A stretch of DNA of 64,000 nt, taken from positions 8,492 through 72,491 of the forward strand of contig JADFXH010000004.1 in NCBI GenBank assembly GCA_015233675.1. Direction: 5' to 3'. This document shows positions 16,200 to 61,460 of this stretch, piece after piece (position 1 is the stretch's first letter; every line of letters begins with the position of its first letter). The position numbers and the translations under genes were made by a program. Origin of the DNA: Candidatus Omnitrophota bacterium (GTDB lineage: Bacteria > Omnitrophota > Gorgyraeia > Zapsychrales > Fredricksoniimonadaceae). A model generated the notes under the pieces. It saw only the letters and a program-made list of their open reading frames with translations, was not told where the DNA came from and ran no database searches.

Positions 16200-16457
16200 A
16201 GCACCCCTCCCAGTCTTCTTTAAAGTAGTATTCTAATCTCAAGAGCAACCATCGTCAACACCGGACTTTACTAACACTTTGAACTTAGTTGATAACGCCT
16301 GTTCGGCATCAATTTATTTTTCTATGTTCACGACATTGTATTCCCTTCGCAGGCAATGCGTCATTTTTTAGCGTTAAAAAAATGACCCCAGGAGCAAAAA
16401 GAATAAATTTAGCCCTTATAATGCCTGCGCACACTGGAAATGTTCATCAGGAAGAAC

Positions 16458-21089: not shown

Positions 21090-21773
21090 TTATTTGTGCT
21101 TTTCTAGCCTGTCGAGCATGCGAAGTAGTCCGTCAAGGATAGTCAAAGGGTGCGGCGGACAGCCTGGGATAAAAAGATCAACAGGGATAATGGTGTCAAG
21201 CCCCCTGGAGGCTTGCGGGCTATCACAAAATATCCCTCCTGAGATTGCACAACCCCCTATCGCAATGACCAGCTTAGGATCAGGAGTAGCCTCATAGGTT
21301 TTAAGCAGCGCCTCGTGCATGTTCTTTGTAATAGGGCCGGTCACAACAATACCGTCAGCATGCCTGGGAGACGCCACAAACTGGATACCAAATCGGGAAA
21401 GATCAAAAACCGGAGTATTTAAAACATTTAGATCTAATTCGCAGGCGTTGCATCCTCCGGCTGAGACCTGCCTTAGCTTAAGCGAACGGCCAAAAATTTT
21501 CAACATACGGTCATTCAAAGCGCGGGCTAATACCATATCTCGCTTATGAAATAAAATCAAATCTTCACGTTTAGACACAGCCATTCGGTAATCATTCGAA
21601 TACACAACATCGCTATCAGGATTAAAAGATATTTCCCCAAGATCAACACTGCCGCTTGGATCCGCAACCACAGGACGCCCGCGATAACGCAAAGGCAAAG
21701 CCGGTGCGGGGGTCTTGGGAAAAAGCAAGGTCCTGCAGCCTTGTTTAAAACGAGTTTTAAGAATTTTTAACAT
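21090..21773 (-). CDS. NuoB/HycG-like small subunit of a group-4-hydrogenase-related (Ehr-like) complex
   Basis: Four Cys for the proximal [4Fe-4S] cluster are retained (GGCNACELD, GGCAISGG, PGCPPHP). The ATG at 21773 is preceded by GAGGGG, so I prefer it over 21797. Confidence 0.85.
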   Translation of the reverse strand: MLKILKTRFKQGCRTLLFPKTPAPALPLRYRGRPVVADPSGSVDLGEISFNPDSDVVYSNDYRMAVSKREDLILFHKRDMVLARALNDRMLKIFGRSLKLRQVSAGGCNACELDLNVLNTPVFDLSRFGIQFVASPRHADGIVVTGPITKNMHEALLKTYEATPDPKLVIAIGGCAISGGIFCDSPQASRGLDTIIPVDLFIPGCPPHPLTILDGLLRMLDRLEKHK

Positions 21774-21829
21774 AATGTTATCCCCTCTCTGATACAAAAT
21801 AAATATTGCGGCGGGCGCTAAGAATCTAT

Positions 21830-23341
21830 CTATAGATCATGCCCGCTATAAGACAAATTGAAACTCTTGTTACACAAGGGAAAATCAGAAATCTCCTGGC
21901 CCCGCATGGACAAAGCTAGCCCAAACCAGTTATGGAATGATGGGTCTTTGATCTTATAACGGGCAAATCCGCCCTGAGCGTCGCTTATACCCACATGCAT
22001 GATTTCCCCTCGCCATCCTTCGACCAAGGCCACGGCAAGTGTATCCGGTTTCATGGGACCAGGGGCTGCGAAAATATCTCCTGCCGGCAATGAAGGTAAA
22101 ACTCTAAGCAAGAATTCCAAAGACCTTAAGACCTCCTGGTTTCTAACCAAGGCTCTGGCATACACATCTCCGGTTGCCCCTAGAGAAATAGGCACATGTT
22201 GAAACTGCCACATCCCTGAAGCATAATTTATCCTGACATCACATTCCAGCTGACTGGCACGTCCAACCGGCCCCACGAGCCCTATCTCTTTGGCGTCTTT
22301 TAAGGCAATCACCCCTACCCCTTCAAAACGCGCTAACACCGACGGTCTGGCAAACAAAAGATCGCTTACGTCTTTAAATTCTTCCCTGTACTTTTTAAGC
22401 TTAAAACAAAAATCATCTGCCATTTTGGCATCGATATCAAACAGGACTCCCCCTGGCCTGCAGAGTCCTTTGCCAAAACGATTCCCTGTCAAAGCTAAAA
22501 GCAAATTCAAATAATCCCCTCGCATACGTCCAAAATAACCGCTCGTGGGTAAAAATCCCGCATCCATGCCTAGCGCTCCTAAATCCCCCACATGATTGGC
22601 TAATCTCTCCAGCTCTAAGGCAACAGCCCGAATCGCCTGGGCACGGGCAGAGATGCTGCATCCTGTTAAAGATTCCACCACTTCACAAAAAGCCGTAGAA
22701 TGGCCGATAGATGTATCTCCGGCAATTGATTCACTTAAAAGCATATTTCGCCTCAGGTCCCTGCCTGCCATGAGCCCTTCAATGCCCCGATGCTGATACC
22801 CTAACTGGATCTCCAAATGCATGACTGCTTCCCCATGGCATTGAAAACGAAAATGACCGGGTTCAATAATTCCAGCATGAACCGGCCCTACGCCAACTTC
22901 ATGGACTTCTTCACCATCAACCGCGTAAAAAGGATATTCCCCCGGGATCGTCTTATTTGCAATATTTTTCCAAATGTCAGACGCTGCCCTATAATTGGAA
23001 TGATACCTTAAAGGCTTAAGCCATGGGTGCCCCAGAGGCCGTATAGCCCACTGCTCTGCAATTTCCCGCTCAAATAAGTGCGCTTGTGGCAAATCTTTTG
23101 TTAAAGATTCGTACTGCGGGGATTCCGGAGAAATAATTGTCGATAAAATTTCAAGTTCGGCATCCTCATCCATACCCATAATGGCCAAAATCCTTATTTT
23201 TCCGTTTGCTTCTAAATTCCCGAATAAATTCACCAAACGGGCTGCTGCATGACAAGATTCAAGAATACGGTTCCGGAACTCTTGCACAGCTAAAACTTTT
23301 ATATTTGATAAAGCTATTTGCCCACCATTAAACAGTTCCAT
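21830..23341 (-). CDS. NuoC-NuoD/HycE-like large subunit lacking the [NiFe] cysteine ligands (Ehr-like)
   Basis: NuoC-like N-terminus (LFEREIAEQWAIRPLGHPWLKPLR). Conserved GPVHAGIIEPGHFRF and LGYQHRGIE. L1 position reads SESIAGDTSIGHSTAF and the C-terminus reads SFNLSYSGHDL (no CxxC). The ATG at 23341 has GGGAGGA 10 nt upstream. Confidence 0.85.
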   Translation of the reverse strand: MELFNGGQIALSNIKVLAVQEFRNRILESCHAAARLVNLFGNLEANGKIRILAIMGMDEDAELEILSTIISPESPQYESLTKDLPQAHLFEREIAEQWAIRPLGHPWLKPLRYHSNYRAASDIWKNIANKTIPGEYPFYAVDGEEVHEVGVGPVHAGIIEPGHFRFQCHGEAVMHLEIQLGYQHRGIEGLMAGRDLRRNMLLSESIAGDTSIGHSTAFCEVVESLTGCSISARAQAIRAVALELERLANHVGDLGALGMDAGFLPTSGYFGRMRGDYLNLLLALTGNRFGKGLCRPGGVLFDIDAKMADDFCFKLKKYREEFKDVSDLLFARPSVLARFEGVGVIALKDAKEIGLVGPVGRASQLECDVRINYASGMWQFQHVPISLGATGDVYARALVRNQEVLRSLEFLLRVLPSLPAGDIFAAPGPMKPDTLAVALVEGWRGEIMHVGISDAQGGFARYKIKDPSFHNWFGLALSMRGQEISDFPLCNKSFNLSYSGHDL

Positions 23342-23348
23342 AAATTTT

Positions 23349-24851
23349 TTATCCTCCCAAGAGTCCCGCGGCCTTATGTAAGTCATTATCAAGGAACGGC
23401 GGGATATAAAAACCAAGAATAAGAACTATGACGATTAAAATCAAGATTGGCATGATCATACTTAAACTTTCCCTTGTCTTCATTCTAAGCCCTAAGGGCG
23501 AAGGATCTTTATTCACATTAAGATCCTTCGCGCAGTTTACCCCCGAATGTTTTAATCGGGGGCTCATGATGACAGAAGAGACAGATTGTCCCTGAATCAT
23601 TTTTAAAATTATGTCTGCAATCCCTATAAAAATAAGGGCCAAAAACAAACAGTAAAAAAACGCGACTAAGTAATGATGTCCTATCAAGGCTGCGTACAGA
23701 ATCAATAATTCACTGATAAAAGTTCCGAAGGGAGGCATTGCGCTTACAGCCAAAAAAGCGGCTAAAAGAAAAATACCTGTAATCGGGAACTCACGAAGCA
23801 CCCCCCTGACATCATTGACTTTTTTGCTTTTATATTGCTTGTATAAATTGCCCGTCACCAAGAAAGCAAAACCCTTGGTAAAAGCGTTATTAATCACATG
23901 AAGGAGGCTGCCATAAATACCTATTGGCCCAAGGCCAATACCAATAGCTAAAATTCCCATATGCTCCACACTGGAGTAGGCAAACATCCTCTTATAATCT
24001 TCCTGACCCAAGATAAACACATAAGCCACGCCCAGAGAGATAATCCCTAAGAGTATGAGCATGGATGAAAAAAATGGAGTTTGGCCCGCGGCAAAACACA
24101 CCTGTCCGACTCTTAAAATACTTAAAAAAGCACAGTTTAATAAACATCCGGAAAGCAGCGCGGAAATTGGCGACGGCGCTTGTGAATGGGCGTCAGGCAG
24201 CCAAGTATGCATGGGAGCAAGCCCCATCTTAGTCCCGCATCCAATAAGCAAGAAAATTACGCTTATTTTAAGCCAAGGCACAGAAAGCTCCTTGGCATGG
24301 TTTAAAAGTTTATCAATAAAAAGGCTTTGAACATTATCGAAGCCCGCAACAGCAAGAAAATATGTCCCCAAAAGAGCCAAAGCTATCCCAATTAAACAAA
24401 TCATTAAAAATTTCCAGGTAGCTTCAATGCTTTGCCTGGTTTTTACAAAATTGATCAACGGCACACTGGATAAAGTCGTGGCTTCGATGCCGATTAATAA
24501 AAGCCCAAAATGCCGGCTGATAGTGACCAAAGTCATAAAAGAAAGGAAAAACAATAAGAATCCGATAAAAATACGATGGGAAACATCTGACTCATTTTTA
24601 AAATAACCCATCAAATAAAATGAGACCATTAAAAAAAGCACACTAACAACTGAAAGGACAAGAAGCCCTAAAGCATCCAGGCCTAAAAATCCATTTAAAA
24701 CAAAAGCCGGTTGAAACTTCCAGAAGCTAAACACGCAAGCCGTATGCAAAAATGCTGTAAAAAAGAGCATCCTGTTGCGGGATTTTTGTTCTGCAAGGAT
24801 GAAAACTGATCCCCCAACAATCAAAGGGAATAAAACCAAAAAAATCAACAT
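23349..24851 (-). CDS. Antiporter-like subunit (NuoN/HyfF-like), set 1
   Basis: 500 aa polytopic, Mrp/NuoLMN-family blocks (…[26 protein letters not shown]…, …YSSVEHMG…). Confidence 0.85.
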   Translation of the reverse strand: [500 protein letters not shown]

Positions 24852-24854
24852 AGA

Positions 24855-25499
24855 TCAATCCTTCAACGTGGTCAGCTGGGTCGTGTCCGTATTATTAAAT
24901 TCTACACTGATATGATTCACCACGATCCCCATGACCAGGGCGGCGATAAAAAGGTCCAAAAGAATGCCCATCTCAACTAACAGAGGCATTTTCTTCAACA
25001 ATAAAATAGCAAAAAGGAAAATACCATTTTCCAAAACTAAATATCCAATAACTTGGCTAATGGCTTTGTTACGGCCGACTAAAAGCAAGAATCCCATAAT
25101 AATTAAAGAAAATGAAGATGGGATCACCATGTCTGATCCTATCTTTACCGGAAAAATAAGTTTAGAAGCAAGCAAAAAGGCTCCTGCAATAGCAAAACCG
25201 CTTAATAATAAAGTCGTCCCTGTCCCTATTAGAGGGCTCACTTCACTGCGGACAGATACGTGCCTGATCGCCCAAAAAAGAAAATAAGGCATAATAAGGC
25301 CTCGAAGCACCATCGCAGCTAAACAGACAAAAATGATATAAAGCTCCATTTCTTTAGCATACAAAAAAAACGGCACACAGCCTAAAAACAAAGACTGCAG
25401 GCCGAAGATATGTATCATCGTTCCCAGACGGGTACTTGCCACAATAAAAAGGCCGAGAATTACAATTAAAATTAAGATAGCATCTAACCAAACATTCAT
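24855..25499 (-). CDS. HyfE/NuoK-like small membrane subunit, set 1
   Basis: 214 aa, about 7 hydrophobic helices, YLVLENGIFLFA block typical of HyfE-type subunits. TAATG overlap with the upstream gene. Confidence 0.8.
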   Translation of the reverse strand: MNVWLDAILILIVILGLFIVASTRLGTMIHIFGLQSLFLGCVPFFLYAKEMELYIIFVCLAAMVLRGLIMPYFLFWAIRHVSVRSEVSPLIGTGTTLLLSGFAIAGAFLLASKLIFPVKIGSDMVIPSSFSLIIMGFLLLVGRNKAISQVIGYLVLENGIFLFAILLLKKMPLLVEMGILLDLFIAALVMGIVVNHISVEFNNTDTTQLTTLKD

Positions 25500-26419
25500 T
25501 AATGCCCCCGAACTAAAATAACGATAAATCCAAAAACGGAAAATATAAACGCGGAAAATAATAAAAAAGAGACCTTGTTCAAACGTAAACGGGCCATTGT
25601 TGATTCAACGATACCGATCAAAACGGCAAAAGCAATGATTTCAAGAATAAAAAAGGCTGTGTCTATTAAAGAATCCCCAGTCCTAAACGTAATAATAATG
25701 GAAACAAGCATCGTGCCAAAAATAAAAAGTTTTACAGCCTTGCCATAAAGAATGTAGGCCAAATCGACCCCGCTATGGTCCAAGACCATGACTTCATGGA
25801 TCATGGTAAGTTCTAAATGGGTCTCAGGATCGTCAACGGGAATACGGGAATTCTCAACCAGAAGGATCAAAAAAAAGCTGACAACCACTAAAATTAAAAC
25901 CGGCCCAACCAAAAGCCAGGAAGAGGACAATCCACCCAGAAATATTTCAGATAAAGAAAGGTTTCTGGATAATAACGCCAAAATTGTCAAATTGAGGAAC
26001 ATGGTGATCTCTGACAAACACCCAAAAGTTGCTTCTCTGCTGGCCCCCATCCCTTCAAAACTTGATCCTGTATCTAAAGCGGCCAGAATAATAACGAAGC
26101 GGGCCAAAGCGAACAAATAAACAAAAAGAATCATGTCTCCCCAGAATTGGACCGGCGGCTTCATAGCCGCAATAGGCATCAGGATACCAGCGGATAAAAT
26201 GGCAGCTAAAGAAACCATGGGCGCCGCCCTAAATATCCAATTAGTAGTAACACTATAAACAGATGCCTTACGCATTAATTTATAAAGATCATAATACGGC
26301 TGGAGTAAAGGCGGGCCAATGCGGCCGGCAAAAAAAGCCTTAGTTTTTCCTATAAATCCCAAAAGCAAAGGAGGAAAAAAAATAAGAATAGTTAAATGTA
26401 ATAATAAAAGAATAGTCAT
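25499..26419 (-). CDS. NuoH/HycD-like membrane subunit, set 1
   Basis: 306 aa. Blocks KAFFAGRIGPPLLQPYYDL, AALDTGSSFEGMGASREA, HLELTMIHEVMVLDHSG as in HycD/HyfC. Confidence 0.85.
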   Translation of the reverse strand: MTILLLLHLTILIFFPPLLLGFIGKTKAFFAGRIGPPLLQPYYDLYKLMRKASVYSVTTNWIFRAAPMVSLAAILSAGILMPIAAMKPPVQFWGDMILFVYLFALARFVIILAALDTGSSFEGMGASREATFGCLSEITMFLNLTILALLSRNLSLSEIFLGGLSSSWLLVGPVLILVVVSFFLILLVENSRIPVDDPETHLELTMIHEVMVLDHSGVDLAYILYGKAVKLFIFGTMLVSIIITFRTGDSLIDTAFFILEIIAFAVLIGIVESTMARLRLNKVSFLLFSAFIFSVFGFIVILVRGH

Positions 26420-26501
26420 ATTTATATCACTTGCATTCTATTCGGCCTTTGTTTCTCTTCTCAGGCCAAATCTGCTTGGGCCTATGAGTGAAAGGATAAC
26501 C

Positions 26502-26647
26502 GTTGTTATTAGCGACACGGAAATTTTTTGCCGTCTGCTACGGTTTACAGCTTGGCTGCTATCGCGATAAATCATTCGCGGCATCCAAGCTGTAAATCCT
26601 TGCAGACTTTTGCCAAAAAATTTCTGAATGTGTCGCAAACAACAACG
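26502..26647. repeat. Palindromic intercistronic element, family A, copy 1 (inverted relative to copies 2 and 3)
   Basis: Arms gttgttattagcgacacggaaattttttgccgtctgctacgg … ccttgcagacttttgccaaaaaatttctgaatgtgtcgcaaacaacaac. Its reverse complement aligns along its length with 28958..29138. Confidence 0.75.
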
Positions 26648-26675
26648 TTTATCCTTCTATACATTTTGATAATGT

Positions 26676-26904
26676 GGCAGCAAGGATAAATTTGTTTTTG
26701 TGAGCGACTTGTCATTTTTAGTCAAAAGTTTTTTATTTTTTCGGGAATCCCGAGGCTTTACGCCGAGGGATGTCTGAACTTGTTTGAGCCTGAAGCTTCC
26801 TAAAGAAGCTGAAGGCGAGTTGTTCAGACACCGAAAAAACAAAGAACTTTTGACGTTAAAAGAATGACCCAGGAGCGAACAAAAATAAATTTATCCTTGC
26901 TGCC
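26676..26904. repeat. Long nested palindromic element, family B
   Basis: Left arm ggcagcaaggataaatttgtttttgtgagcg… Right arm reverse-complements to ggcagcaaggataaatttatttttgttcgctcc… Inner inverted repeat gtctgaacttgtttgagcctgaagcttc / gaagctgaaggcgagttgttcagac. Partial relatives near 16362..16416 and 51455..51497. Confidence 0.65.
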
Positions 26905-26931
26905 TTCGTCACGAATGATTTCAAACCCCCT

Positions 26932-28929
26932 TCAATGCAACTTCCACGCCAATAAAACGAAAAGAAAAAAAAGAATATACAGTATATAGATTTGCGTGTG
27001 CCCGCTTTGGATCCATTTAAATCTTCTGGAAAATCTTTTAATAATAAAAAAAATCGGCCGGAACAATAAATATTCTGAAACGTCTTTTACAGAAGAACTT
27101 AAACGGGCCTGAACAGGGAAATAGCCTTTTGGCCTGACAGTCTCAATCTTAAAATATAAAATTGTCCTGAAAATTTTTAAGATCGGTTTGGCAAATGAAG
27201 AGGAGGTGTACTGCATACGGGCTGTAACGTTTGCATATCCACACACCCAGGTTTCTGTCAATTTCATTGGATAGCCCAATATAAGAAATTTACGTAAAAG
27301 AGACAGCCCTACAAAAATTAAACCGCCAAACGATATAACCTTTGTAACCATCAAAAGAGGACCAATGATGGCTTCTATTAAAACATCAGGGATAAGCATG
27401 CCTGTGGCTGCCTGAGTCCCTTGAAACGCGTAATAAACCATGTTAGCCGGGAAAAGTCCAACCCAAAGGCAAATGACTGCCAGCAAAATCATAGGGCCAC
27501 GCATTATTAGATCTCCCTCCTGATAATGATGTTCCTCTGAAGATCTGTTATTACCTAAAAAAATAACACCAAAAGCTTTAGCAAAACAAAGCGCGGCTAA
27601 ACCACCAATAAGGCTTAATGCGACTATGGCCATACTTGAAAAAATAATACCAAAAATATCAAAATGAAAAACCCCTTCCAACAATGATCGAAAAACTAAC
27701 CACTCACTGATAAACCCATTAAAAAGCGGGAGCCCGCAAATAGACAAAGAGCCAATTAAAAAAAGATGTCCTGACCATGGAAGCCGCTTAAAGAGCCCCC
27801 CCATGTGTTCCATATCGCCCGTATGAGTTGAATGGATCACAGAACCGGCACTTAAAAACAAAAGTCCTTTAAATATCGCATGATTAAAAGTATGTAAAAG
27901 TGCCGCCGCATATCCCAGTAAAGCCACTGTGTCCTGATGATACGCATGCCCTATCATTCCTATGCCCAAGCCCAATGCAATAATGCCGATATTTTCAATG
28001 CTGTGATACGCTAACAATTTCTTGATCTCATGTTGGCCCAAAGCATATAACACCCCTCCAACTCCCGAGACAGCCGCCATTATTAAAAGCAGTACTCCGC
28101 ACCACAGGGGAAAATCTTTAACAATGGCCATGGCACGCATCAAGCCATAAATTCCGACTTTAATAACCACCCCTGAAAGTAAAGCAGAAATATAACTAGG
28201 CGCCGCTGGATGAGCATAGGGCAGCCAAATATGAAAAGGCATGAATCCGGCTTTAATGCCGAAACCTATAAACGCCAGCATAAAAAGTAAAGAAGCTAAA
28301 CCCAAAGGAAATGGGGTTGCCCTCATCTGATCAAAATTCATAGACCCGGCTTTGACTCCCATGATCAAAAACATTAAAACCAAACAGAAAACTCCCACAT
28401 GGGTTGCTATCAAATAAATATAACCTGCCTTGCGCACCTGTTCGCTTTCATTGTAAAAGGTGATAAGAAAATAAGAGACTACGGTCATTAGTTCCCACGC
28501 CGCAAGGAATAAAACCGCATTTTTAGCGACTAGAACAAGGATGATGACAATCATGAGCAAATGATAAAGGGCCAAATGCACGCCCACGTTCCTTTGGCCG
28601 GTATATTCACGTAAATAGCCATACGCATAAATGCCGGCGGAAAGCGATACAATGAAAAACAATAAAAGGAAAAACGCGCTTAAAAAATCTATGCCTATAT
28701 AAAATTCAAACAACGGAAGGTGTCCAGACAACCGAAAATCTAGGCCTGTCAACGGCAAGAAAAGCTCCTTTTGGCATAAAACACTTAAGACTGACCAAAG
28801 GCCAAATCCACAAGCCGCAACCAATGACCACAAAAACAGGTAAGCAGAGGTTTTCCTGGAACGACAAAATAAGAATATCAATAAACTTGATATTGTCAGG
28901 ATAGAAAGACTGATTAATAATAGATTCAT
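26932..28929 (-). CDS. HyfB/HycC/NuoL-like antiporter-like subunit, set 1
   Basis: 665 aa. Blocks WELMTVVSYFLI, FHIWLPYAHPAAPSYISALLSG, and the HyfB-type C-terminus TWVCGY…MQYTSSSFAKP. Confidence 0.85.
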   Translation of the reverse strand: MNLLLISLSILTISSLLIFLFCRSRKTSAYLFLWSLVAACGFGLWSVLSVLCQKELFLPLTGLDFRLSGHLPLFEFYIGIDFLSAFFLLLFFIVSLSAGIYAYGYLREYTGQRNVGVHLALYHLLMIVIILVLVAKNAVLFLAAWELMTVVSYFLITFYNESEQVRKAGYIYLIATHVGVFCLVLMFLIMGVKAGSMNFDQMRATPFPLGLASLLFMLAFIGFGIKAGFMPFHIWLPYAHPAAPSYISALLSGVVIKVGIYGLMRAMAIVKDFPLWCGVLLLIMAAVSGVGGVLYALGQHEIKKLLAYHSIENIGIIALGLGIGMIGHAYHQDTVALLGYAAALLHTFNHAIFKGLLFLSAGSVIHSTHTGDMEHMGGLFKRLPWSGHLFLIGSLSICGLPLFNGFISEWLVFRSLLEGVFHFDIFGIIFSSMAIVALSLIGGLAALCFAKAFGVIFLGNNRSSEEHHYQEGDLIMRGPMILLAVICLWVGLFPANMVYYAFQGTQAATGMLIPDVLIEAIIGPLLMVTKVISFGGLIFVGLSLLRKFLILGYPMKLTETWVCGYANVTARMQYTSSSFAKPILKIFRTILYFKIETVRPKGYFPVQARLSSSVKDVSEYLLFRPIFFIIKRFSRRFKWIQSGHTQIYILYILFFLFVLLAWKLH

Positions 28930-28957
28930 TGTTGAGTCTCTTTCAAGCGGCCTATCT

Positions 28958-29138
28958 CTAGCACGGATGAATAACTATTTTGTATTTGGCACGTTCAGGA
29001 ATTTTTTGCCAAAAGTCTGCAAGGTTTTACAGCGCGGATGCCGCGGATGCTTTATCGCGATAGCATCCAAGCTGCAAACCGTAGCAGACGGCAAAAATAT
29101 TCCGTGCCAAATACAAAATAGTTATTCATCCGTGCTAG
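28958..29138. repeat. Palindromic intercistronic element, family A, copy 2 (archetype)
   Basis: Perfect 36-nt terminal inverted repeats ctagcacggatgaataactattttgtatttggcacg (28958..28993) and cgtgccaaatacaaaatagttattcatccgtgctag (29103..29138). The interior is further self-complementary. Lies between the stop at 29151 and the start at 28929. Confidence 0.85.
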
Positions 29139-29150
29139 CATCATGCATAG

Positions 29151-30563
29151 CTAGACAGACACTATCAAGGCAGCCGCATTGTGGAGCAATTTCTCCAAAG
29201 GAGACGGCATCCATAATCCGATACTGATCAATAGTATACCAGCCATTGCAATGGCTACGTTCATGTATATATTCTCTTTCTTGGCAAGGAGAGGCTCTTT
29301 AGGCTGGCCATGAATTACATTAAGAATAATTTTTCCAATACCAATAAACATTAAGCCCAGACAAACAACACCAACCGCGGCCATTAAATAATGCTTGGAA
29401 ATGATGGCCGCGTTAAGGATCAAAAGCTCGCTATGAAAAGTCGCAAAAGGAAACATGCCTGTCCCCGCTAATAGGGCCGCAATTAAAAAAACACCTGTCA
29501 GCGGATATATATGAATGACTCCCCTAATTTCATCAGCGCTCGCGGAGCCGTATTTCTGAGCTAAAGAACCCGCTGTTAAAAACATAACAACCTTGGCCAA
29601 TGCATTATTGATCATATGAAACAAAGCTCCGAACAAACCGACTGTCCCCAATCCAAGCCCCAATACCAAAAGTCCCATATGTTCAATAGAAGAATAGGCA
29701 AATGCTCTTTTAATGTTCCTCTCTCCTAAAATAAACATAGCAGGGACAATCAGTGATAAAACGCCGGATAGGATCAGGATGGAAGAAAAAAAATCAGTTA
29801 GCCCTGTTTTATTACAAATTTGAGCGATTCGAAGCAAAGCTAAAAAAGAACATTGGGTCAATGCCCCTGCCATCAACACCGCCACCATTCCTGGGGCCTG
29901 TCCGTACGCTTCCGGTTTCCAACTATGTGTTGGGGCCAAGCCCATTTTACAACCGTAACCCACAATAAAAAAGATTATACTAAGCTTCAACCAATTTACC
30001 GATAGTAAAGGCGCTCCTTTTAAAAGGGCCGGCAATAAAAGAGTATGCACATCATGGGCCGCAATGGCCAAAAAGAATGTGCCCATCAAAGCTAAAGCTA
30101 TGCCTACGGAACAAATCAACAAATACCGCCAAGTAGCCTGTAAACTTTGCTGACTACGATGGAAACTTATAAGAGGCGCGCTAAAAAGCGTGGTCGCTTC
30201 TATGGCTACCCACAAAAGACCAAAATGATAACTCACCGCAACAAGTGTCATCATTGAGAGCAAAAGGAATAAGCAAGTTACAAAGACACGGTTGCGTCCA
30301 AGCTCATGTTTAAAATAACCTATCATAAAAATAGACACTGACAAAAAAAGAAAACTGATAATCGAAAGCAATATAAGCCCCAAAGAATCAAGCACTAAAA
30401 AACCATGGTATTCCGAAGGGGGGAACTCTTTCCAAAATGAAGCAACAAACAGGCTGTGGGCTAAAGAAACGGCCCCAAAAAGCTTGAGCCTAAAGTATTT
30501 ACTTACCGGTAAAAGAACTCCCAGCGCACATAAAAACGGCATTAAAATCAAAATCGTCAACAT
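29151..30563 (-). CDS. Antiporter-like subunit (NuoN/HyfF-like), set 2
   Basis: 470 aa. Collinear with 23349..24851 (e.g. GLAPTHSWKPEAYGQAPGMVAVLMAG vs [26 protein letters not shown]). Confidence 0.85.
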   Translation of the reverse strand: MLTILILMPFLCALGVLLPVSKYFRLKLFGAVSLAHSLFVASFWKEFPPSEYHGFLVLDSLGLILLSIISFLFLSVSIFMIGYFKHELGRNRVFVTCLFLLLSMMTLVAVSYHFGLLWVAIEATTLFSAPLISFHRSQQSLQATWRYLLICSVGIALALMGTFFLAIAAHDVHTLLLPALLKGAPLLSVNWLKLSIIFFIVGYGCKMGLAPTHSWKPEAYGQAPGMVAVLMAGALTQCSFLALLRIAQICNKTGLTDFFSSILILSGVLSLIVPAMFILGERNIKRAFAYSSIEHMGLLVLGLGLGTVGLFGALFHMINNALAKVVMFLTAGSLAQKYGSASADEIRGVIHIYPLTGVFLIAALLAGTGMFPFATFHSELLILNAAIISKHYLMAAVGVVCLGLMFIGIGKIILNVIHGQPKEPLLAKKENIYMNVAIAMAGILLISIGLWMPSPLEKLLHNAAALIVSV

Positions 30564-31216
30564 TAAAACGTTTCCCCCATATTCGATTGCACAACGGACG
30601 CTGTGTTCTTCTCAAATTCTTCATTGATATGGTTGACCACGATGGCCATGATAAACACAGCAACAAAAATATCCAAAAGGATGCCCATTTCTATAAGGAC
30701 TGGCATGACATCAAACAATGATATAGCGAAAAGAAAAATGCCGTTTTCAAGGATCAAATAACCCAAAACCTGGGTCACGGCACGAGTACGTGTTACCATG
30801 ATCATAAATCCTAAAAGGACCGTTGAAAGAGAACATGGCAGGACCAAGTCAGAGGCGGGCTGACCCGGAATTTTCAAAGATAAAGAAACCCAAAATGCCC
30901 CGGCTATGACTATGGCCCCAAAAATAATGGATGCCCCAAATCCGATGATAGGCTTGATTTCTGAACGCATGGACACATGCCGGATAGCCCAAAATAAAAT
31001 ATATGGCACTAACGCGGCCTTTAAGATCATGGTGACAAGACCAATCATGATATCCCTGCTTGAAATACTAGAGGCATGCAGAAAAAACGGCAATAGCCCT
31101 AAGACAAAAGACTGAAGGGCAAAAACGCCAATCATCGCGGCTACGCGGTGATTGGACAAAATAATAAGCGATAAGAATACAATAACAATACAGATCACAT
31201 CAACCCAACTTGTCAT
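30563..31216 (-). CDS. HyfE/NuoK-like small membrane subunit, set 2
   Basis: Paralog of 24855..25499 (YLILENGIFLFA). I prefer the ATG at 31216 (MTSWVDVICIV…) because the ORF-track start at 31273 overlaps the upstream gene. Confidence 0.8.
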   Translation of the reverse strand: MTSWVDVICIVIVFLSLIILSNHRVAAMIGVFALQSFVLGLLPFFLHASSISSRDIMIGLVTMILKAALVPYILFWAIRHVSMRSEIKPIIGFGASIIFGAIVIAGAFWVSLSLKIPGQPASDLVLPCSLSTVLLGFMIMVTRTRAVTQVLGYLILENGIFLFAISLFDVMPVLIEMGILLDIFVAVFIMAIVVNHINEEFEKNTASVVQSNMGETF

Positions 31217-31220
31217 ACCT

Positions 31221-32144
31221 CTACATCCTCCACATCTTGACGACAAATCCAAAAAAAGCCAAAGCAAAAGCAATCAACAATAAATTATTAACCCTGTTAA
31301 GCCTGAGGCGCGCCATAGTCGATTCTATAATGCCCACCGTGACGGACAAAACCAGCATCCCGCCTAAAAAAATCAGCATATCCCAAGCCGTATTCCCCGA
31401 TTGGACTGGAACAATAATAGGGACCATGATGCTGGCAAAAACAAAAAATTTTATAGCCGCTGCGTAAAGCATATAGCCCAAATCTACCCCGCTGTGGTCT
31501 AAAATCATCACTTCATGGATCATGGTCAATTCCAAATGAGTATCAGGATCATCAATGGGAATGCGGGCGTTTTCTGTCAGAATAACAATAAAAAAACTGC
31601 CTACCACCAAAAGCAAAACTGGCCCCATCAGTGTCCAAGACAAAGGGAAATTAGCCCCTATCATCGCAGATAAAGAAATGCTGTGGCTAACAAACGAAAG
31701 CGTAATGAAATTCATAAATAGCGCCAGTTCAGAAAGGCAGGAAAAAAAAGCCTCACGGCTGGCTCCCATTCCTTCAAAACTAGATCCGGTATCAAGAGCC
31801 GCAGAGATCATAAAAAACCGGGCAAACCCCAAGATATAGGCTGCCAGGAGTATATCACCGGAAAATTTTACAGGAGCTTTAAATGTCCCAAGGGGAACAA
31901 GCGCCGATAAAACCAAAACAGCGGCAAGATTAATGATAGGTGCGGCACAAAAAATCCATGTGGTTGTCCTGCTATAGACAGAATTCTTTTGAAACAGCCG
32001 CTGCAAGTCAAAATACGGCTGAAAAAAAGACGGCCCTTTCTTGCCTGCAAAAAATGCCTTTACTTTTGAAATAATGCCTAAAAATAAAGGTGACAGGGTT
32101 AGGACAATTAGCCAGTGGGATAAAATTAAGAATATAATGTTCAT
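31221..32144 (-). CDS. NuoH/HycD-like membrane subunit, set 2
   Basis: Paralog of 25499..26419 (AALDTGSSFEGMGASREA and HLELTMIHEVMILDHSG are both conserved). The ATG at 32144 forms an ATGA overlap with the upstream stop. The ORF-track start at 32156 is a TTG. Confidence 0.85.
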   Translation of the reverse strand: MNIIFLILSHWLIVLTLSPLFLGIISKVKAFFAGKKGPSFFQPYFDLQRLFQKNSVYSRTTTWIFCAAPIINLAAVLVLSALVPLGTFKAPVKFSGDILLAAYILGFARFFMISAALDTGSSFEGMGASREAFFSCLSELALFMNFITLSFVSHSISLSAMIGANFPLSWTLMGPVLLLVVGSFFIVILTENARIPIDDPDTHLELTMIHEVMILDHSGVDLGYMLYAAAIKFFVFASIMVPIIVPVQSGNTAWDMLIFLGGMLVLSVTVGIIESTMARLRLNRVNNLLLIAFALAFFGFVVKMWRM

Positions 32145-33961
32145 TTCAATTTCCAAACCAGCAAAAATATCAAATACAAGAAAATGTACATCAAGTATAT
32201 TTGGGTATAACGAATACGGTTCATGTCCAGCTTCTTTGAAAAACTTGTCAATCGAGCAAACAAAGGCTTAAATAAGAATTCTTCGGATGCATCATGGACC
32301 GATGACGACATGGATGTTTTAGCTGGAAATTTCCCTTTAACATCCCCCCCTTCACGTCGAAAAAATAGAATTCCTTTTACAAAATCAACAATAAGAAGGG
32401 CAAAGGAAGATGAGGTGTATTGAATCTTAGGCGTCATCTGAAAAAAACCGCAGCCCCAGGTTTCACGAACAGGCTGGGCGTGGCCTTGCAAAAGTTTGCG
32501 ACGTATACCTACAAGGGCCAAAACCAAGGCAAAAAAAAGAAAAACACCGCTAATGACAAGAGATAAGGGGTAAAAAATAGTTCCCATAGGAAGACTTGCA
32601 AGGTCCGTATGTGATAAATAGGCTCCGCCTTGAAAAGCTGCATTGGCCATTATTTGAGGAAAAAGGCCGATCCACAAGCATAACCCTCCCAGGACCAGCA
32701 TGGGAATAATCATTAATAAAGAAATTTTGCCCGTGGATGGCGGTTCTTGCAGATGGCGAGGTTCGCCTAAAAACACGGTGCCATATACCTTGGTAAAACA
32801 AGCCAAGGCTAACGCTCCCATGAGAGCCAATGAAATAATTCCCACAGCACAAGTAAAAGCCCCCTGCAAAGGCAAATGAAAAAGCCCTTGAAAAAGGCCA
32901 AAATAAATAATGAACTCACTGATAAATCCATTAAATAACGGCAGTCCACAAATAGCCAAAGCCCCAACAAGAAATAAAATGCTGACCAACGGCATAGTAC
33001 GGGCGAGTCCTCCCATCAGGTCCATATCACTTGTATGCGTTCTTTGAATAACACATCCCGCACCCATAAACAAAAGCCCTTTAAATATAGCATGGTTTAA
33101 AACGTGCAAAAGTGCGCCGCCAAATCCAAGTACGGATAAAAATGGCATGTGATGGCTCTGCCCCAATAGCCCAACGCCTAAACCCAGCGAAATAATCCCG
33201 ATATTCTCAATGCTATGATAAGCCAACAGCTTTTTAAGTTCATGCTGACCTAAAGCGTACAAAACTCCCATCAGCCCACACACGACACCAATGATTAAAA
33301 TCAAATATCCGCACCAATCCGGTAATACCCCGATTATCCATAACACCCGACAGATGCCGTAAATGCCCATTTTGATAGCCACCCCCGATAAAATAGCAGA
33401 AATATGTGTCGGAGCTGCGGGATGCGCGTGAGGCAGCCAAATATGGACCGGAACAAACCCTGCTTTGATCCCAAAACCAATAATGGCCAAAAGAAGTATA
33501 CTACCCGCAAAAGCAACAGGAAAACTCGAATGACTGATAATCTCAAAGTTCATGGACCCGGCATTATGCGCCATTAAAAAGAACATTAAAATAAGAAGAA
33601 AAGTCCCGCAATGGGACATGATCAAATAAAGGAAGCCAGCACGACGCACAGAGGATTTTTCATCATTAAAAACAATTAAAAAATAGGTAGAAATGGACAT
33701 CATTTCCCAAGCACCTAAGAAAAGAATCACATTATTGGCCAAGACGATCAAAACAAGAGCGGTTGACAAAAGGAAATAAAAAAAGATATGGAGCCCCATT
33801 GACTTGGTGGTCCTATACTGACGCATGTACCCTACAGCGTAAACGCCGGCACATAAAACCAGGATGGTGACTGCGGTAAGAAAGATAAGACTCAAAGAAT
33901 CAAGTTTAAGAGCAAACTCCCCAAAAGGGACATGCCATGGCCATTGAAATGATTCTAGCAT
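32141..33961 (-). CDS. HyfB/HycC/NuoL-like antiporter-like subunit, set 2
   Basis: Paralog of 26932..28929 (WEMMSISTYFLI, VHIWLPHAHPAAPTHISAILSG, TWGCGF…IQYTSSSFALL). I prefer the ATG at 33961 (MLESFQWPWH…), which avoids overlap with the ptsN-like gene. Confidence 0.85.
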   Translation of the reverse strand: MLESFQWPWHVPFGEFALKLDSLSLIFLTAVTILVLCAGVYAVGYMRQYRTTKSMGLHIFFYFLLSTALVLIVLANNVILFLGAWEMMSISTYFLIVFNDEKSSVRRAGFLYLIMSHCGTFLLILMFFLMAHNAGSMNFEIISHSSFPVAFAGSILLLAIIGFGIKAGFVPVHIWLPHAHPAAPTHISAILSGVAIKMGIYGICRVLWIIGVLPDWCGYLILIIGVVCGLMGVLYALGQHELKKLLAYHSIENIGIISLGLGVGLLGQSHHMPFLSVLGFGGALLHVLNHAIFKGLLFMGAGCVIQRTHTSDMDLMGGLARTMPLVSILFLVGALAICGLPLFNGFISEFIIYFGLFQGLFHLPLQGAFTCAVGIISLALMGALALACFTKVYGTVFLGEPRHLQEPPSTGKISLLMIIPMLVLGGLCLWIGLFPQIMANAAFQGGAYLSHTDLASLPMGTIFYPLSLVISGVFLFFALVLALVGIRRKLLQGHAQPVRETWGCGFFQMTPKIQYTSSSFALLIVDFVKGILFFRREGGDVKGKFPAKTSMSSSVHDASEEFLFKPLFARLTSFSKKLDMNRIRYTQIYLMYIFLYLIFLLVWKLK

Positions 33962-33980
33962 ATTAAAAAATCTGCCTTCT

Positions 33981-34664
33981 TTATAAAGCTCTTGCCGTTC
34001 TTGATTCCGCGACTTGAAATGCCGCCAGAATCTCTTCACTTTGCCCTCGGCGCTTTAAAGCCGATATAACTTCTTCGTCCTGCAGGCAAAATGCCAAGCG
34101 TGATAATAAAGACAAGTGCCATTTAAACGATGACGACAAAATGACAAATAAAGTATGCACCCCTTCACCATCGAGTGCAGAAAAATCAACAACCTTTTCA
34201 AGAAAGAAAATTCCAACGATAGGCTCCATTCCAGCCAGCACCACCGGATGTTTAACATGCGGAATAGCAATACCATTGCCAATACCGGTTGTTCCTGCCT
34301 GCTCACGGGACAATAGCATCTCTTTTAAAGAGGCTCTCTGAATATGACCGGGCAAGGGTAATAGATCTAGGACCTTCCCAAGAACTTCTTCCCGTAAAGA
34401 CCCATTGATCCCAAAATATACGCCTCCACGCATAAGTGCCGGGGTGATGATATCCCTGCCTTGACGGGTCTTTTCACAAAGCTTCAATGCACCCGTGGTA
34501 AGACGTATCCGGTTTTTTAAGGCCCACTCTAAAACTTCAACCGAATTAAAATAATACTGGTCATTAGCCTTAATGGCTGGCATACCCTTCTTATTAAGCC
34601 ATTGATAAAGCGTCTCCTCCTCAATTTCAAATGCCTTTTCTATATCACGAAAAGTCAGCTGCAT
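33981..34664 (-). CDS. HTH domain fused to a PTS EIIA(Ntr)/PtsN-type domain
   Basis: N-terminus LTFRDIEKAFEIEEETLYQWLNKKGMPAIK (excisionase/MerR-like HTH). EIIA-2 active-site block GIGNGIAIPHVKH. GAGAGGGA RBS. Confidence 0.8.
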   Translation of the reverse strand: MQLTFRDIEKAFEIEEETLYQWLNKKGMPAIKANDQYYFNSVEVLEWALKNRIRLTTGALKLCEKTRQGRDIITPALMRGGVYFGINGSLREEVLGKVLDLLPLPGHIQRASLKEMLLSREQAGTTGIGNGIAIPHVKHPVVLAGMEPIVGIFFLEKVVDFSALDGEGVHTLFVILSSSFKWHLSLLSRLAFCLQDEEVISALKRRGQSEEILAAFQVAESRTARAL

Positions 34665-51208: not shown

Positions 51209-51259
51209 ATTAAACCTCTTGTTAATCCCCCTGCCCGCCAAAAGGATAATCACTATTAT

Positions 51260-51450
51260 GCGCGATGAGACAGGAGGAAGAAATTTATTTTTATTCGGTA
51301 CGTTCAGGAATTTTTTGCCAAAAGTCTGCAAGGAGTTATGGCTATAATGTTCCAAATGAAGAGAAACTTTAGAACATTATAGCCATAAACCGAAGCAGAC
51401 GGCAAAAATATTCCGTGCCGAATACATAATACCTGTTCATCCATCACGCA
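51260..51450. repeat. Palindromic intercistronic element, family A, copy 3 (boundaries approximate)
   Basis: ggtacgttcaggaattttttgccaaaagtctgcaagg and cgaagcagacggcaaaaatattccgtgccgaatac are nearly identical to copy 2. The inner hairpin differs (gttatggctataatgttc … gaacattatagccataac). Confidence 0.8.
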
Positions 51451-51498
51451 ACAAATTGCGCCAGAAGCAGAAAGAACGAATTTATCCCTGCTGCCTCA

Positions 51499-53643: not shown

Positions 53644-55659
53644 TTAAAACTTCACTTTGATACCCGCCTCTGCATTGCGTCCGGGGGCGGGCCAATAATA
53701 ATTGCCATAAGGGCCTTCAGTAACTCCATAGATATAATATTTAGCACTAAATATGTTCTGTAAAGTGAACCATAATTCAATGTTCTTAATACCGTATTTA
53801 ATGTTCCAATCAACGGTATCATATCGCTTTAATTTAGATTGAGTATTAGCTTGATCAGCATCCAGGAATTCTTTGCCGACAAAATGCGTTGTAAACGACA
53901 TGCTTAGACGGTCTAAAGGCCTAAAGGAGATACCTGCATTAGCTAGATGGTCCGGCACATAAGGAAGCACATTGCCTGAATATTTTCCCTTAACAAACTC
54001 AGATTGCTGGAAGGTAATGTTCGCAAATGGTTCAATTTTCTTATTAAACAAATCAACAGAAGCAGCTGCTTCTTCACTATAATGCCGAGTCCTGCCATCA
54101 TAGTTAACATTCGCCGGGTAAGGTAACGCATTGGGATCATAAAAGATCTCATTTTTATACTGGACCTCTGTAAAAGTAGCACCTAAATGAATACCTTTAA
54201 AACTTTGGTCTTTAACACCTAATTGATATTGATTACCAACTTGGTACGTGACTCCAGCGTTCACTTGGGCTGGATATTCCAACCCGGAGACATAGTAAGG
54301 GCTTTGGAAGTATTCATCTATATTCGGCAGACGATAGGAATGAGAATAATCTACAAACACTTTTGAATCAGGATTGTATTTATATCCCAAGCCCCCGTCA
54401 TATCCTTCCGTTGTATCGCAACGTCCCAATTTAGCAGTTGCCTGTTGGGTTTGGTCAAAAACGTAATCTGCCCATGCCCCCCTGACACCGGCATTAAGCA
54501 GCCATTTCTGGTCAAGGGTTAGTTCATCCAACAAATAAACGTTTTGTGATGCCTCGGTTATATAATAAACATCCTCAGGATTAGCATAACTTCTCCGGTC
54601 TTCATGATTGTAAATATAATCATACCCTGAAGTTAATTTGCTATCCAAACGGTCTGTTAAAGGAGTTGATACGATGAGCTTCGGTTGGAATTCATAAGAT
54701 TCTGTTTCATAGTTTAACGATTCATCATCATAACCCGGCCAAATAGAATCGGTCACTCTCTTTCTAGCTGAAGCAAACAAGGAAAAATCGAAATGGCTTG
54801 TCCCCGCGTCAAATTTCATATACGGGGTCACATCAAAATGTGAGTCTGAGGCAGTATTAATGGCAGGGCCAGACACTTGATCTAAACCAGTGGGGCCAAC
54901 TAAATTAATATCATCAATGGTCAATCCCCCGGGAGTCCGATAACGGTCCAAGTGATACCCTTGCGAAAAATCAACACCAAAAATATCAGTAGGATTATAA
55001 TTTAAATGTGTATTGTACTCATTGGCCCAATAATTATCAAAGGTGCGATAATTATCGTTTTGTTGACGGTCATAATTAAATTGATACGTCAATTGGGGAA
55101 GCCCGCCGCTTAAAGCTATCCCGTCTTTATTTCCTTTATAACTATCTACCTCACTGGTTAATGTCACTGATGGCTTGGTGTTTTCCGTACCTTTTTTGGT
55201 GACAATATTAATGACCCCGCCGCTGGCATTGTCCCCGTAAAGCACCGTACCAGCCCCTTGAATGACCTCAATATGATCGACAGAATTTAAATCAATCAGC
55301 GACAAATCCGGCCCGGATAAATCAGGCTCATTCAAACGACGGCCATCAACCATCACCAATACGTTGGATGTGCTCGTAACCCCAAAACCACCAATATCCG
55401 TATATGATGGATCATGAATGTTACCAGCGATAGTTCCATGGACCCCTGGTATGGCACTCAACAACTCCGGCAAACTTTTAGCCGGTGAAATGGTAATATC
55501 CCCAGATGAAATGATGCTTACATTTTTGTTCATATCGCTCACAACATCATTGCTGCGGGAAGCTTCTACGACTATTTTGCCCAAATCAACCGCCTCCTGG
55601 GCAAGCCCTCTGCTCAAAAATAATGCTAAGAAGATGATCATTAGACTGAAAAACTTCAT
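53644..55659 (-). CDS. TonB-dependent outer-membrane receptor (BtuB-like by context)
   Basis: Signal peptide, plug domain (…IEVIQGAGTVLYGDNASGGVINIVTK…), C-terminal beta-barrel ending AGIKVKF. Downstream of the btuFCD-like genes. Confidence 0.85.
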   Translation of the reverse strand: MKFFSLMIIFLALFLSRGLAQEAVDLGKIVVEASRSNDVVSDMNKNVSIISSGDITISPAKSLPELLSAIPGVHGTIAGNIHDPSYTDIGGFGVTSTSNVLVMVDGRRLNEPDLSGPDLSLIDLNSVDHIEVIQGAGTVLYGDNASGGVINIVTKKGTENTKPSVTLTSEVDSYKGNKDGIALSGGLPQLTYQFNYDRQQNDNYRTFDNYWANEYNTHLNYNPTDIFGVDFSQGYHLDRYRTPGGLTIDDINLVGPTGLDQVSGPAINTASDSHFDVTPYMKFDAGTSHFDFSLFASARKRVTDSIWPGYDDESLNYETESYEFQPKLIVSTPLTDRLDSKLTSGYDYIYNHEDRRSYANPEDVYYITEASQNVYLLDELTLDQKWLLNAGVRGAWADYVFDQTQQATAKLGRCDTTEGYDGGLGYKYNPDSKVFVDYSHSYRLPNIDEYFQSPYYVSGLEYPAQVNAGVTYQVGNQYQLGVKDQSFKGIHLGATFTEVQYKNEIFYDPNALPYPANVNYDGRTRHYSEEAAASVDLFNKKIEPFANITFQQSEFVKGKYSGNVLPYVPDHLANAGISFRPLDRLSMSFTTHFVGKEFLDADQANTQSKLKRYDTVDWNIKYGIKNIELWFTLQNIFSAKYYIYGVTEGPYGNYYWPAPGRNAEAGIKVKF

Positions 55660-60854: not shown

Positions 60855-61460
60855 CTATCCATTCAAATACGCCGTTTCATTCATAACTGTCACAACCGGA
60901 TCTTGGCCCCAAGGGTATTCAATCACATTGAGTGCGGCATTGTCCTGCTGGATCGACCAAAAATCTTTAACCCCGCGCTTCAAAGCATCACAGAGGATGA
61001 CCCTGATGGGGCCCCCGTGTGACACCACAGCGATCGATTGCCCTCTATGATGCGATAACAAAGAAGACAGCCCATCCATGACCCGATGACAAAAATCTAT
61101 AAAAGCTTCCCCATTGGGGATCTTTACGTCCCATGGGGCATGGATCCATGCCTCATAAATTTGGGAATAATTCTTCATGGCCTCTTCGTACTTTAATCCC
61201 TCGAGAACCCCAAAATCCATCTCGCGAAAACAATTTTGCTTGACAATTTTTTCATTTTCAAAAGCGATCGCAGCTGTTTCAAAAGCTCTTTGCAGATCAC
61301 TCGAATAGACGGCATCAAAATGCGCACCTTGAAAATAGCGGGCTATTTTCAAGGCCTGCTTGCGACCTTCATCATTCAGGTCAACATCTAATGAACCGCA
61401 ATACTTTCTTTCAAGGCTAAAATCAGTTTGCCCGTGGCGAAGTAGAAAAATTTTAGTCAT
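60855..61460 (-). CDS. cobC: Histidine-phosphatase family protein (alpha-ribazole phosphatase by context)
   Basis: LLRHGQTDFS catalytic-His motif, SDLQRA, VVSHGGPIR. First gene behind the riboswitch. Confidence 0.8.
   Translation of the reverse strand: MTKIFLLRHGQTDFSLERKYCGSLDVDLNDEGRKQALKIARYFQGAHFDAVYSSDLQRAFETAAIAFENEKIVKQNCFREMDFGVLEGLKYEEAMKNYSQIYEAWIHAPWDVKIPNGEAFIDFCHRVMDGLSSLLSHHRGQSIAVVSHGGPIRVILCDALKRGVKDFWSIQQDNAALNVIEYPWGQDPVVTVMNETAYLNG

Follow-up and report, generated by a model that had tools for sequence, protein, structure and literature searches.

Introduction

ERIC repeats are co-transcribed and have orientation-dependent effects on the stability of neighbouring mRNA, and for YPAL elements the comparison of empty with filled sites points to recent mobility (PMC2229807). 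The stem of Correia elements is a substrate of RNase III, and these elements can donate outward promoter elements (PMC2229807, PMC2649163). REP, BIME and REPIN are extragenic palindromes that mostly follow genes, in the gaps between unidirectional or convergent open reading frames (ORFs); REPs are often paired in inverted orientation and have been linked to mRNA stabilisation (PMC3733652). Here we describe repeats resembling these in a 64,000-nt stretch of a Candidatus Omnitrophota genome (assembly GCA_015233675.1, contig JADFXH010000004.1, positions 8,492 to 72,491), hereafter called the window. Copies of two families, A and B, occupy a 512-nt spacer inside its Ehr/Hyf-like operon, between a HyfB-like and a NuoH-like gene.

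An earlier reading of the letters alone (the sequence-only reading) had framed this spacer as a structure specific to the operon. That framing is misleading, since the same elements stand beside unrelated genes in 27 genomes. We consider it probable (roughly 0.78) that the spacer arose when two non-autonomous hairpin mobile repeats, B and the family A copy A1, now lying head-to-head, were inserted in this lineage into a 1-nt operon junction. Because the same elements also lie between unrelated housekeeping genes in the 27 genomes, repeat insertion is taken as the primary explanation and any effect on expression as a by-product. A search of a limited collection of papers found no description of such repeats in Omnitrophota. 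Families A and B seem to be undescribed in this phylum; their kind is already known.

The spacer and orthologous junctions

Ten complex-I/Hyf-like genes form a cluster on the minus strand of the window (21090 to 34039). Within it, a 512-nt non-coding gap (26420..26931), just as the sequence-only reading had described it, separates two intact minus-strand genes. The upstream gene (26932..28929) encodes a HyfB/NuoL-like antiporter-type subunit of 665 aa (Pfam PF00361, 1.3e-49, and PF00662), and the downstream gene (25499..26419) a NuoH-like subunit of 306 aa (PF00146, 4e-33). The gap is made almost wholly of repeat-family palindromes and is exceptional within the Ehr-like operon, as had been claimed. 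The other junctions of the ten-gene cluster do overlap or measure at most 32 nt, with one exception, a 221-nt spacer at 28930-29150.

The gap contains inverted repeats at 26676-26701/26879-26904 (26 nt, 96% complementary), 26712-26744/26831-26863 (33 nt, 82%) and 26533-26559/26581-26607 (27 nt, 85%). The palindromes lie where they had been placed, except that the family A hairpin is longer and spans 26491-26657 rather than 26502-26647. Folding bore out the description of the gap as highly structured: as operon-strand RNA it has a minimum free energy (MFE) of -214.4 kcal/mol, compared with -119.3 +/- 6.1 kcal/mol for dinucleotide shuffles (z = -15.6), and none of 100 shuffles folded as well. 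The proposed families are true repeat families, A with three full copies in the window and B with a remnant in the window and two metagenome copies.

We compared the junction in orthologous operons from three lineages, whose HyfB-like proteins are 83% (L001-L003), 77% (L004-L006) and 67% (L007-L008) identical. The spacer is absent from every one of the eight loci, where the HyfB-like/NuoH-like junction consists of 1 nt (TAA/TGA-N-ATG), which settles a comparison that the sequence-only reading had proposed. Protein lengths are unchanged: HyfB-like orthologues of 665, 665 and 661 aa have the length of the window gene, and NuoH-like orthologues of 306-307 aa start 1 nt past the upstream stop. In these relatives the stop-N-ATG junction is accompanied by a weak Shine-Dalgarno (SD) sequence (-3.3 kcal/mol) inside the upstream gene. 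In the window, the NuoH-like gene is essentially without an SD (-1.2 kcal/mol vs a window median of -4.3).

Two further junctions are expanded in the window. The one upstream of the HyfB-like gene measures 2 nt in L004 and L005 vs 221 nt in the window, and the junction between an HlyD-like and an ABC-ATPase gene 27 nt in L001 vs about 269 nt. All three expanded junctions contain a family A copy, and a search of the orthologous Ehr loci with the family A covariance model R1 found no copies there. Exact-protein look-ups for other assemblies of the same species, in which the insertion might be polymorphic, found none on record.

The Ehr/Hyf-like cluster as a whole consists of two tandem membrane-module sets (NuoL-like, NuoH-like, a subunit of about 215 aa and NuoN/M-like). 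Its gene arrangement is conserved but permuted between relatives, as seen by comparing the window (21090-34039) with L004 (5279-17202) and L007 (2863-14974). The window and L004 clusters each have a single NuoCD-like and a single NuoB-like gene, and in L007 this catalytic pair is placed between the two membrane-module sets.

Anatomy of the spacer

Read 5' to 3' on the operon strand, the spacer runs from the TGA stop through a 27-nt head, B (229 nt), an 18-nt linker, A1 (167 nt), CACTCATAGGCC with a 35-nt hairpin, and a 30-nt tail to the ATG. The head AGGGGGTTTGAAATCATTCGTGACGAA (26905..26931, minus strand) directly follows the HyfB-like stop and is unique sequence: neither the window nor about 1 Mb of fetched loci contains a significant match, and the flanks of other B copies are not significantly similar to it. 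The family B element (26676..26904, plus strand) is a nested palindrome in which a long stem ends in a three-way junction. The linker (26658..26675, minus strand), predicted to form a small ACAUU/AAUGU hairpin, has no further copies in the window and the same fetched loci.

A1 (26491..26657, minus strand) is an imperfect hairpin with its polar core sense to the operon. It matches R1 at 26493-26647(-) with 131.5 bits (E 5e-36) vs 44.7 bits on the opposite strand, and it also carries the exact core pattern. B and A1 have their 'left' ends turned towards each other (head-to-head), as do two copies in L067.

The segment between A1 and the tail (26450..26490, minus strand) was delimited by folding and by comparison with the flank of a B copy in metagenome contig L069. 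Relative to that flank, the A1 tail has an extra 35 nt with GGCC direct repeats at its ends (GGCC-CAAGCAGATTTGGCCTGAGAAGAGAAACAAA-GGCC), which corresponds to the small GGCC-stem hairpin noted earlier near 26455..26485. To judge from its sequence, this segment looks like a secondary micro-insertion or a slippage duplication within the element tail. The 30-nt tail GCCGAATAGAATGCAAGTGATATAAATAT (26420..26449, minus strand) is AU-rich and unpaired, and adjoins the NuoH-like ATG. It matches the sequence after the L069 B copy (score 38; 0 of 2000 shuffles as good), where the downstream gene is unrelated to NuoH-like and has its own GGAGG SD. The tail therefore travels with the element and belongs to the repeat family rather than to the host; the leader of the NuoH-like gene, up to the start codon, is element-derived.

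Family A

Family A has a core of the form ..ATTTTTTGGC, a bulge, GTCTGCAAGG.TTTAC, an apical hairpin, and GTAAACCGyAGCAGAC-GGCAAAAA... The core is invariant and strand-polar, with conserved mismatches and with fixed asymmetries, namely the bulge, an A/GUA-type internal loop and a G.G mismatch (in 28 of 39 copies). The bulge measures 14-20 nt in 17 copies and 3-4 nt otherwise. The apical hairpins are exchangeable, with at least five types, each found across genomes, and the GTAG within CCGTAGCAGAC reads GCAG in about half of the copies. A sigma-54 -24/-12 reading of the TGGCA..CTGCA motif was rejected on inspection (GG-to-GC spacing of 9 instead of 10, and GCC in many copies).

The outer arms evolve fast, being only 31-67% identical between copies, yet in every copy they are self-complementary (85% Watson-Crick paired). 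On the explicit structure, 85.6% of cells are paired vs 37-50% with the partners slid, and 87 cells show double (compensatory) changes vs 33 +/- 4 in shuffles, a count reached by 0 of 500. R1 scores of 59-146 bits on one strand and 24-45 bits on the other show that the element is polar.

The search pattern GTCTGCAAGG-N45-75-GCAGACGGCAAAAA, for which about 0.1 chance occurrences are expected in the genome collection, was found in 59 stretches from 27 metagenome-assembled genomes (MAGs) and other genomes. The hosts include the complete genome of Ca. Velamenicoccus archaeovorus. A match in the Lachnospiraceae MAG L026 was discarded as a chance occurrence without flank similarity. R1 detected six more copies in about 0.5 Mb of flanks, which brings the family to 65 copies or more, spread over 27 divergent genomes of Omnitrophota.

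Several host MAGs are labelled 'uncultured Planctomycetales/Planctomycetia' (L010, L013, L017, L018, L025, L030, L031, L034, L036, L039, L048, L056, L061, L063 and L067). These show synteny and 57-97% protein identity with Omnitrophota MAGs (e.g., L010/L055 and L039/L023), and their labels are, on this sequence comparison, probably wrong. Because of this synteny, family A is seemingly confined to Omnitrophota. A phage or plasmid origin was rejected, as searches of viral contigs, phage records and plasmid records gave 0 matches.

The window holds two full copies besides A1. A2 (28958..29138, plus strand; R1 match 28975-29128(+), 116.5 bits) is a 181-nt hairpin, antisense to the operon, that fills the 221-nt spacer between a 470-aa PF00361 gene and the HyfB-like gene. 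A3 (51266..51498, plus strand; R1 match 51284-51439(+), 117.1 bits) lies in the HlyD-like/ABC-ATPase junction and has a different apical hairpin and B-like outermost arms.

The outer arms of A2 (28958-28993/29103-29138) are 36 nt long and 100% complementary, in contrast with the mismatches of other copies. Long perfect palindromes are usually unstable in bacteria, and the perfect arms of A2 suggest either a very recent insertion or hairpin-templated correction.

Repeat copies also inflate ORF calls. The 361-aa ABC-ATPase ORF (50270-51355, minus strand), which has a TTG start, extends into A3; since the L001 orthologue has 319 aa, the true start is probably near 51229. Spurious ORFs run across the element in L013, L028, L045, L050 and L057.

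Genomic context and mobility

Family A copies lie mostly between genes of the same direction (45 of the 54 copies with both neighbours called), usually within a few tens of nucleotides of the upstream stop. Among these 45, the antisense orientation relative to the genes prevails, with 34 copies against 11 in sense (binomial p = 8e-4). The neighbours are housekeeping genes such as those for RodA/FtsW, PBP2, RuvB, RF-1/2, MetRS, TatD, PdxA, KsgA, UvrC and RibF. Copies at non-orthologous sites of different genomes are 83-93% identical, with flanks at about 37%, and the host proteins are often only 44-78% identical. An element identity so far above that of flanks and host proteins implies that the family has been moving, or has been exchanged, in each lineage. 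Within genomes, the similarity between copies ends abruptly, which delimits a unit of about 200 nt.

[quoted passage not shown] Insertion into the apex of hairpins already present in the host was rejected, as relatives have 1-2 nt junctions at the A1 and A2 sites and the arms of the JBBTLH subfamily travel with the unit.

Local clustering is frequent, with pairs in L028, L035, L044, L047 and L067 and three copies within 3 kb in L031. In L031 (2533-5470), the three copies have the same orientation and are separated by small ORFs (136-316 aa). The L067 pair (4011-4437) is arranged head-to-head between rodA and a radical-SAM gene, and in Ca. Velamenicoccus archaeovorus (L023) the same intergenic site is filled as well, though the copy there is of another subtype. 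As the elements at this common site (PBP2-RodA-[element]-radical SAM) are just 49% identical, independent insertion is equally likely there. Ancient orthologous retention was also considered for L032/L063 and dropped, the flanks being unalignable.

A linked mobility gene was sought and the idea was rejected. The most that any linked protein family recurs is in 4 of 58 loci. The 114 immediate neighbours match 188 Pfam families, and the 25 most recurrent of these, each matched by at least two neighbours, include no transposase or integrase. The window contains no transposase, and the only plus-strand cluster-mate in it is a gene for a CDF transporter. No insertion sequence with the same ends as family A was found in about 0.5 Mb of flanks.

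We propose that the elements are moved in trans by an enzyme that would recognise the asymmetric, conserved core, probably when this is folded. Insertions would survive only where genes stay unbroken, which would explain the positions in operon junctions.

Several observations weigh against insertion of mobile repeats as the origin of the spacer. The search of about 0.5 Mb of flanks revealed no autonomous partner or mobilising enzyme. It is the centre of family A and not the termini that is conserved, which is atypical for a MITE recognised by a transposase. A consistent target-site duplication could not be defined: TA..TA is possible in the JBBTLH subfamily and A2, and absent or not clear-cut in A1, B, L019, L020 and L049. 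The nearest 'empty' relative is just 83% identical at the protein level. Finally, read-through, RNA processing and a change in subunit ratio are wholly inferred.

Family B

Family B has the same layout as A, with a T-run and CGG, a side hairpin at the site of the A bulge, GTCTGAAC...GTTCAGAC, and CCG followed by an A-run. The core polarity of the copy in the spacer is on the plus strand, antisense to the operon, and its MFE is -118 kcal/mol on the plus strand and -103.5 kcal/mol on the minus strand. Two more copies were found in metagenome contigs L068 and L069, one of them from the sample of relative L001. In both, the side hairpin is invariant and the apical hairpin is compensated. A B-type deletion remnant lies between an ROK-family gene and a small downstream gene (16337..16414, plus strand; a blastn match of 84% with the right arm of B across 50 nt); with R1 it scores 18.2 bits (E 0.0075).

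The left arms of B and A1 are similar (a score equalled by 3 of 2000 shuffles), and the right arms have just AAGGATAA in common. Family B is not detected by the family A covariance model, and for that reason a common origin of A and B, suggested by layout and left-arm similarity, is plausible but not proven.

Alternative explanations

The polarity of the elements invites readings in which they act as nucleic acids from their own strand. In the fast-evolving arms of family A, G:U juxtapositions exceed A:C ones (55 vs 27) in the element's own orientation, counts that are not independent because copies are related. Once polarised by mRNA sense, the counts become 21 G:U vs 40 A:C, and the excess is therefore not tied to the mRNA. 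In 57 of 62 copies, the RNA that reads in the element's own orientation is the more stable one. These results and the invariant polar core leave room for an own-strand function, as RNA or as folded single-stranded DNA. In the broadest form of this idea, which we regard as speculative and unlikely, A and B would be a phylum-wide, strand-polar module serving a conserved Omnitrophota protein, with an invariant internal-loop core, swappable apices and an insertion-tolerant bulge that in B holds an extra invariant hairpin. Such a module could be a domesticated site organising mRNA processing at operon junctions or a new hairpin-recognising single-strand transposition system.

Alternatively, A and B might be genes or modules for a functional structured RNA that is expressed in the element's own orientation, in many cases antisense to the genes beside it. 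On this view a sense and an antisense copy would share the spacer, and the multi-copy state would reflect function rather than parasitism. The G:U excess and own-strand stability just described fit this idea, as do the invariance of the core across genomes with proteins 44-78% identical, the strong strand polarity of the model scores (116-146 vs 24-45 bits), and the conserved mismatches and covarying stems. However, neither scanning nor inspection of alignments showed a conserved signal resembling a promoter or terminator within the element or near it, and the G:U counts come from related copies. The whole window scanned against Rfam at gathering score gave no match in the spacer, only a cobalamin riboswitch elsewhere; a permissive scan of 26380-29200 returned only sub-threshold miRNA-precursor hairpins (e.g., 27 bits vs a gathering score of 90). 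A guide-like role for the variable bulge was discarded, as the bulges of the 17 long-bulge copies match the flanks no better than shuffled bulges. The copies moreover sit in operon junctions of 1-27 nt and cluster locally, like mobile DNA, and we rate an RNA gene as improbable.

Less probable still is that the spacer evolved as an operon-internal regulator (an attenuator, processing site or stability determinant) that sets the ratio of membrane subunits. Its extreme fold stability, its place between genes of one complex, and the precedents of REP and ERIC, which modulate intra-operon expression, would suit such a role. It is absent, however, from all orthologous operons examined, the same sequences occur beside unrelated genes, and the perfect 36-nt arms of the neighbouring A2 suggest recent arrival.

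We consider it very improbable that the hairpins divide the cluster into several transcription units by acting as terminators or insulators. TTTT or ATTT comes after the inner stem GTCTGC..GCAGAC in the commoner orientation, copies lie mostly just past stop codons, and the 30-nt tail before the nuoH-like gene contains a weak -10-like TAGAAT. In the A1 orientation, however, the U run is missing; in the other orientation it is short and enclosed by a longer stem, and the complete hairpins are not followed by a U tract. No terminator-like site (GC-rich stem plus U tract) was found on the minus strand in 26420-26931, which lends no support to the effect through termination proposed in the sequence-only reading. 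Sigma-70 promoters in the spacer were also rejected, since promoter-like matches, which include a weak CTGAGA-18-TAGAAT, are no more frequent than in shuffles (11 vs 7.2 +/- 2.9 expected).

That assembly or amplification produced the palindromes as artefacts (fold-back chimeras), or that the region is protein-coding, is next to impossible: the source is a metagenome-assembled genome and small ORFs of 61-83 aa overlap the spacer, but the family occurs in 27 independently assembled genomes including the complete isolate-level genome NZ_CP019384.1, the flanking genes are intact and syntenic, length differences are not multiples of three (cores of 83-99 nt, bulges of 3-20 nt), and the small ORFs lie inside palindromes.

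Consequences for the operon

If the spacer arose by insertion of mobile repeats, its effects on the operon would be secondary. With no terminator present, the spacer would be transcribed through as one mRNA. B and A1 would then be part of the polycistronic mRNA, each folding into a long, imperfect double-stranded stem. To go by ERIC, Correia and REP elements, such stems may be cut by ribonucleases or may block them; they are plausible substrates for RNA decay steps that are specific for double strands or in which 3'-exonucleases are blocked.

The start of the NuoH-like gene is predicted by folding to lie in an unpaired AU-rich leader. The insertion would abolish hyfB-nuoH translational coupling and leave a nuoH-like leader that is AU-rich, SD-less and supplied by the element. 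The loss of translational coupling foreseen in the sequence-only reading is supported by the comparison of sequences, as the 1-nt junction and the embedded SD of the relatives are gone. Expression of the genes on either side of the spacer is probably uncoupled, judging from the behaviour of known repeats, as a side effect and not by an evolved regulator.

The locus offers a natural experiment in which translational coupling is broken inside a respiratory-complex operon, and an odd operon feature can be explained as a mobile-element insertion. More widely, A/B repeats break assemblies, mislead gene callers through spurious ORFs and mis-set start codons, and can rewire operon expression. For Omnitrophota, known almost only from metagenomes, this work provides a calibrated model and an anatomy of a seemingly undescribed repeat family, and the combination of an invariant polar centre with rapidly covarying arms is a handle for finding the enzyme that moves it.

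Other structured elements in the window

The cobalamin riboswitch (RF00174, 61551-61710, minus strand; 62 bits, E 6e-13) lies upstream of the minus-strand gene 60855..61460. A different palindrome (55723-55848) occupies the spacer 55660-55877 upstream of the 671-aa gene 53644..55659. It has a perfect 25-bp stem around a branched 76-nt interior (-90.7 vs -61.6 +/- 4.5 kcal/mol, z = -6.4), contains no GTCTG..CAGAC core and has no R1 match.

Comparison with known repeat systems

Integron attC sites and guide-bearing transposon RNAs resemble families A and B little. By inspection, without a dedicated motif scan, the arm ends carry no attC R boxes (RYYYAAC/GTTRRRY); the neighbours are housekeeping and operon genes instead of integron cassettes, and the recurrent families of the 114 neighbours include no integrase. 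As for bridge/seek and omega RNAs, no guide-like loop match was found, and no recombinase or TnpB recurs among the neighbours.

The head-to-head B+A1 and L067 pairs resemble REP dimers. REPs, which RAYT transposases mobilise, however measure 20-40 nt and carry a GTAG or CGTC tag, whereas A and B measure 165-230 nt and the GTAG of family A alternates with GCAG. The nearest counterparts of A and B are ERIC, YPAL and Correia elements. The Correia elements of Neisseria (NEMIS, CREE) are likewise small hairpin mobile repeats between genes and are co-transcribed, and the TAGAAT-containing, element-derived nuoH leader is reminiscent of them, although promoter activity is not supported statistically. 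They differ in having conserved terminal inverted repeats of 24-26 bp, a TA duplication and an IHF site, whereas the termini of A and B are the least conserved part.

YPAL (RU-2) of Yersinia is similar in size (~168 bp), lacks TA termini, is not AT-rich and has dyad symmetry. It makes variable target duplications of 3-26 bp, none of which were identified in A/B; the sequences are unrelated, and the apex of A/B is modular.

ERIC (enterobacterial repetitive intergenic consensus, or IRU) elements are also imperfect palindromes of about 130-200 nt, non-coding and multi-copy, restricted to intergenic transcribed regions including operon junctions, with conservation across a broad clade. In ERIC, it is the centre that is conserved, and insertions at fixed positions within the element give rise to size variants. 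There is no sequence similarity to the 127-bp ERIC consensus: the ERIC2 primer consensus gave 0 matches at up to 3 mismatches. ERIC further differs in host phylum, in outer arms that diverge more slowly, and in its TA target duplication, which is not demonstrable in A/B. By analogy, families A and B appear to work like ERIC, YPAL and Correia elements while being a member of none of these families.

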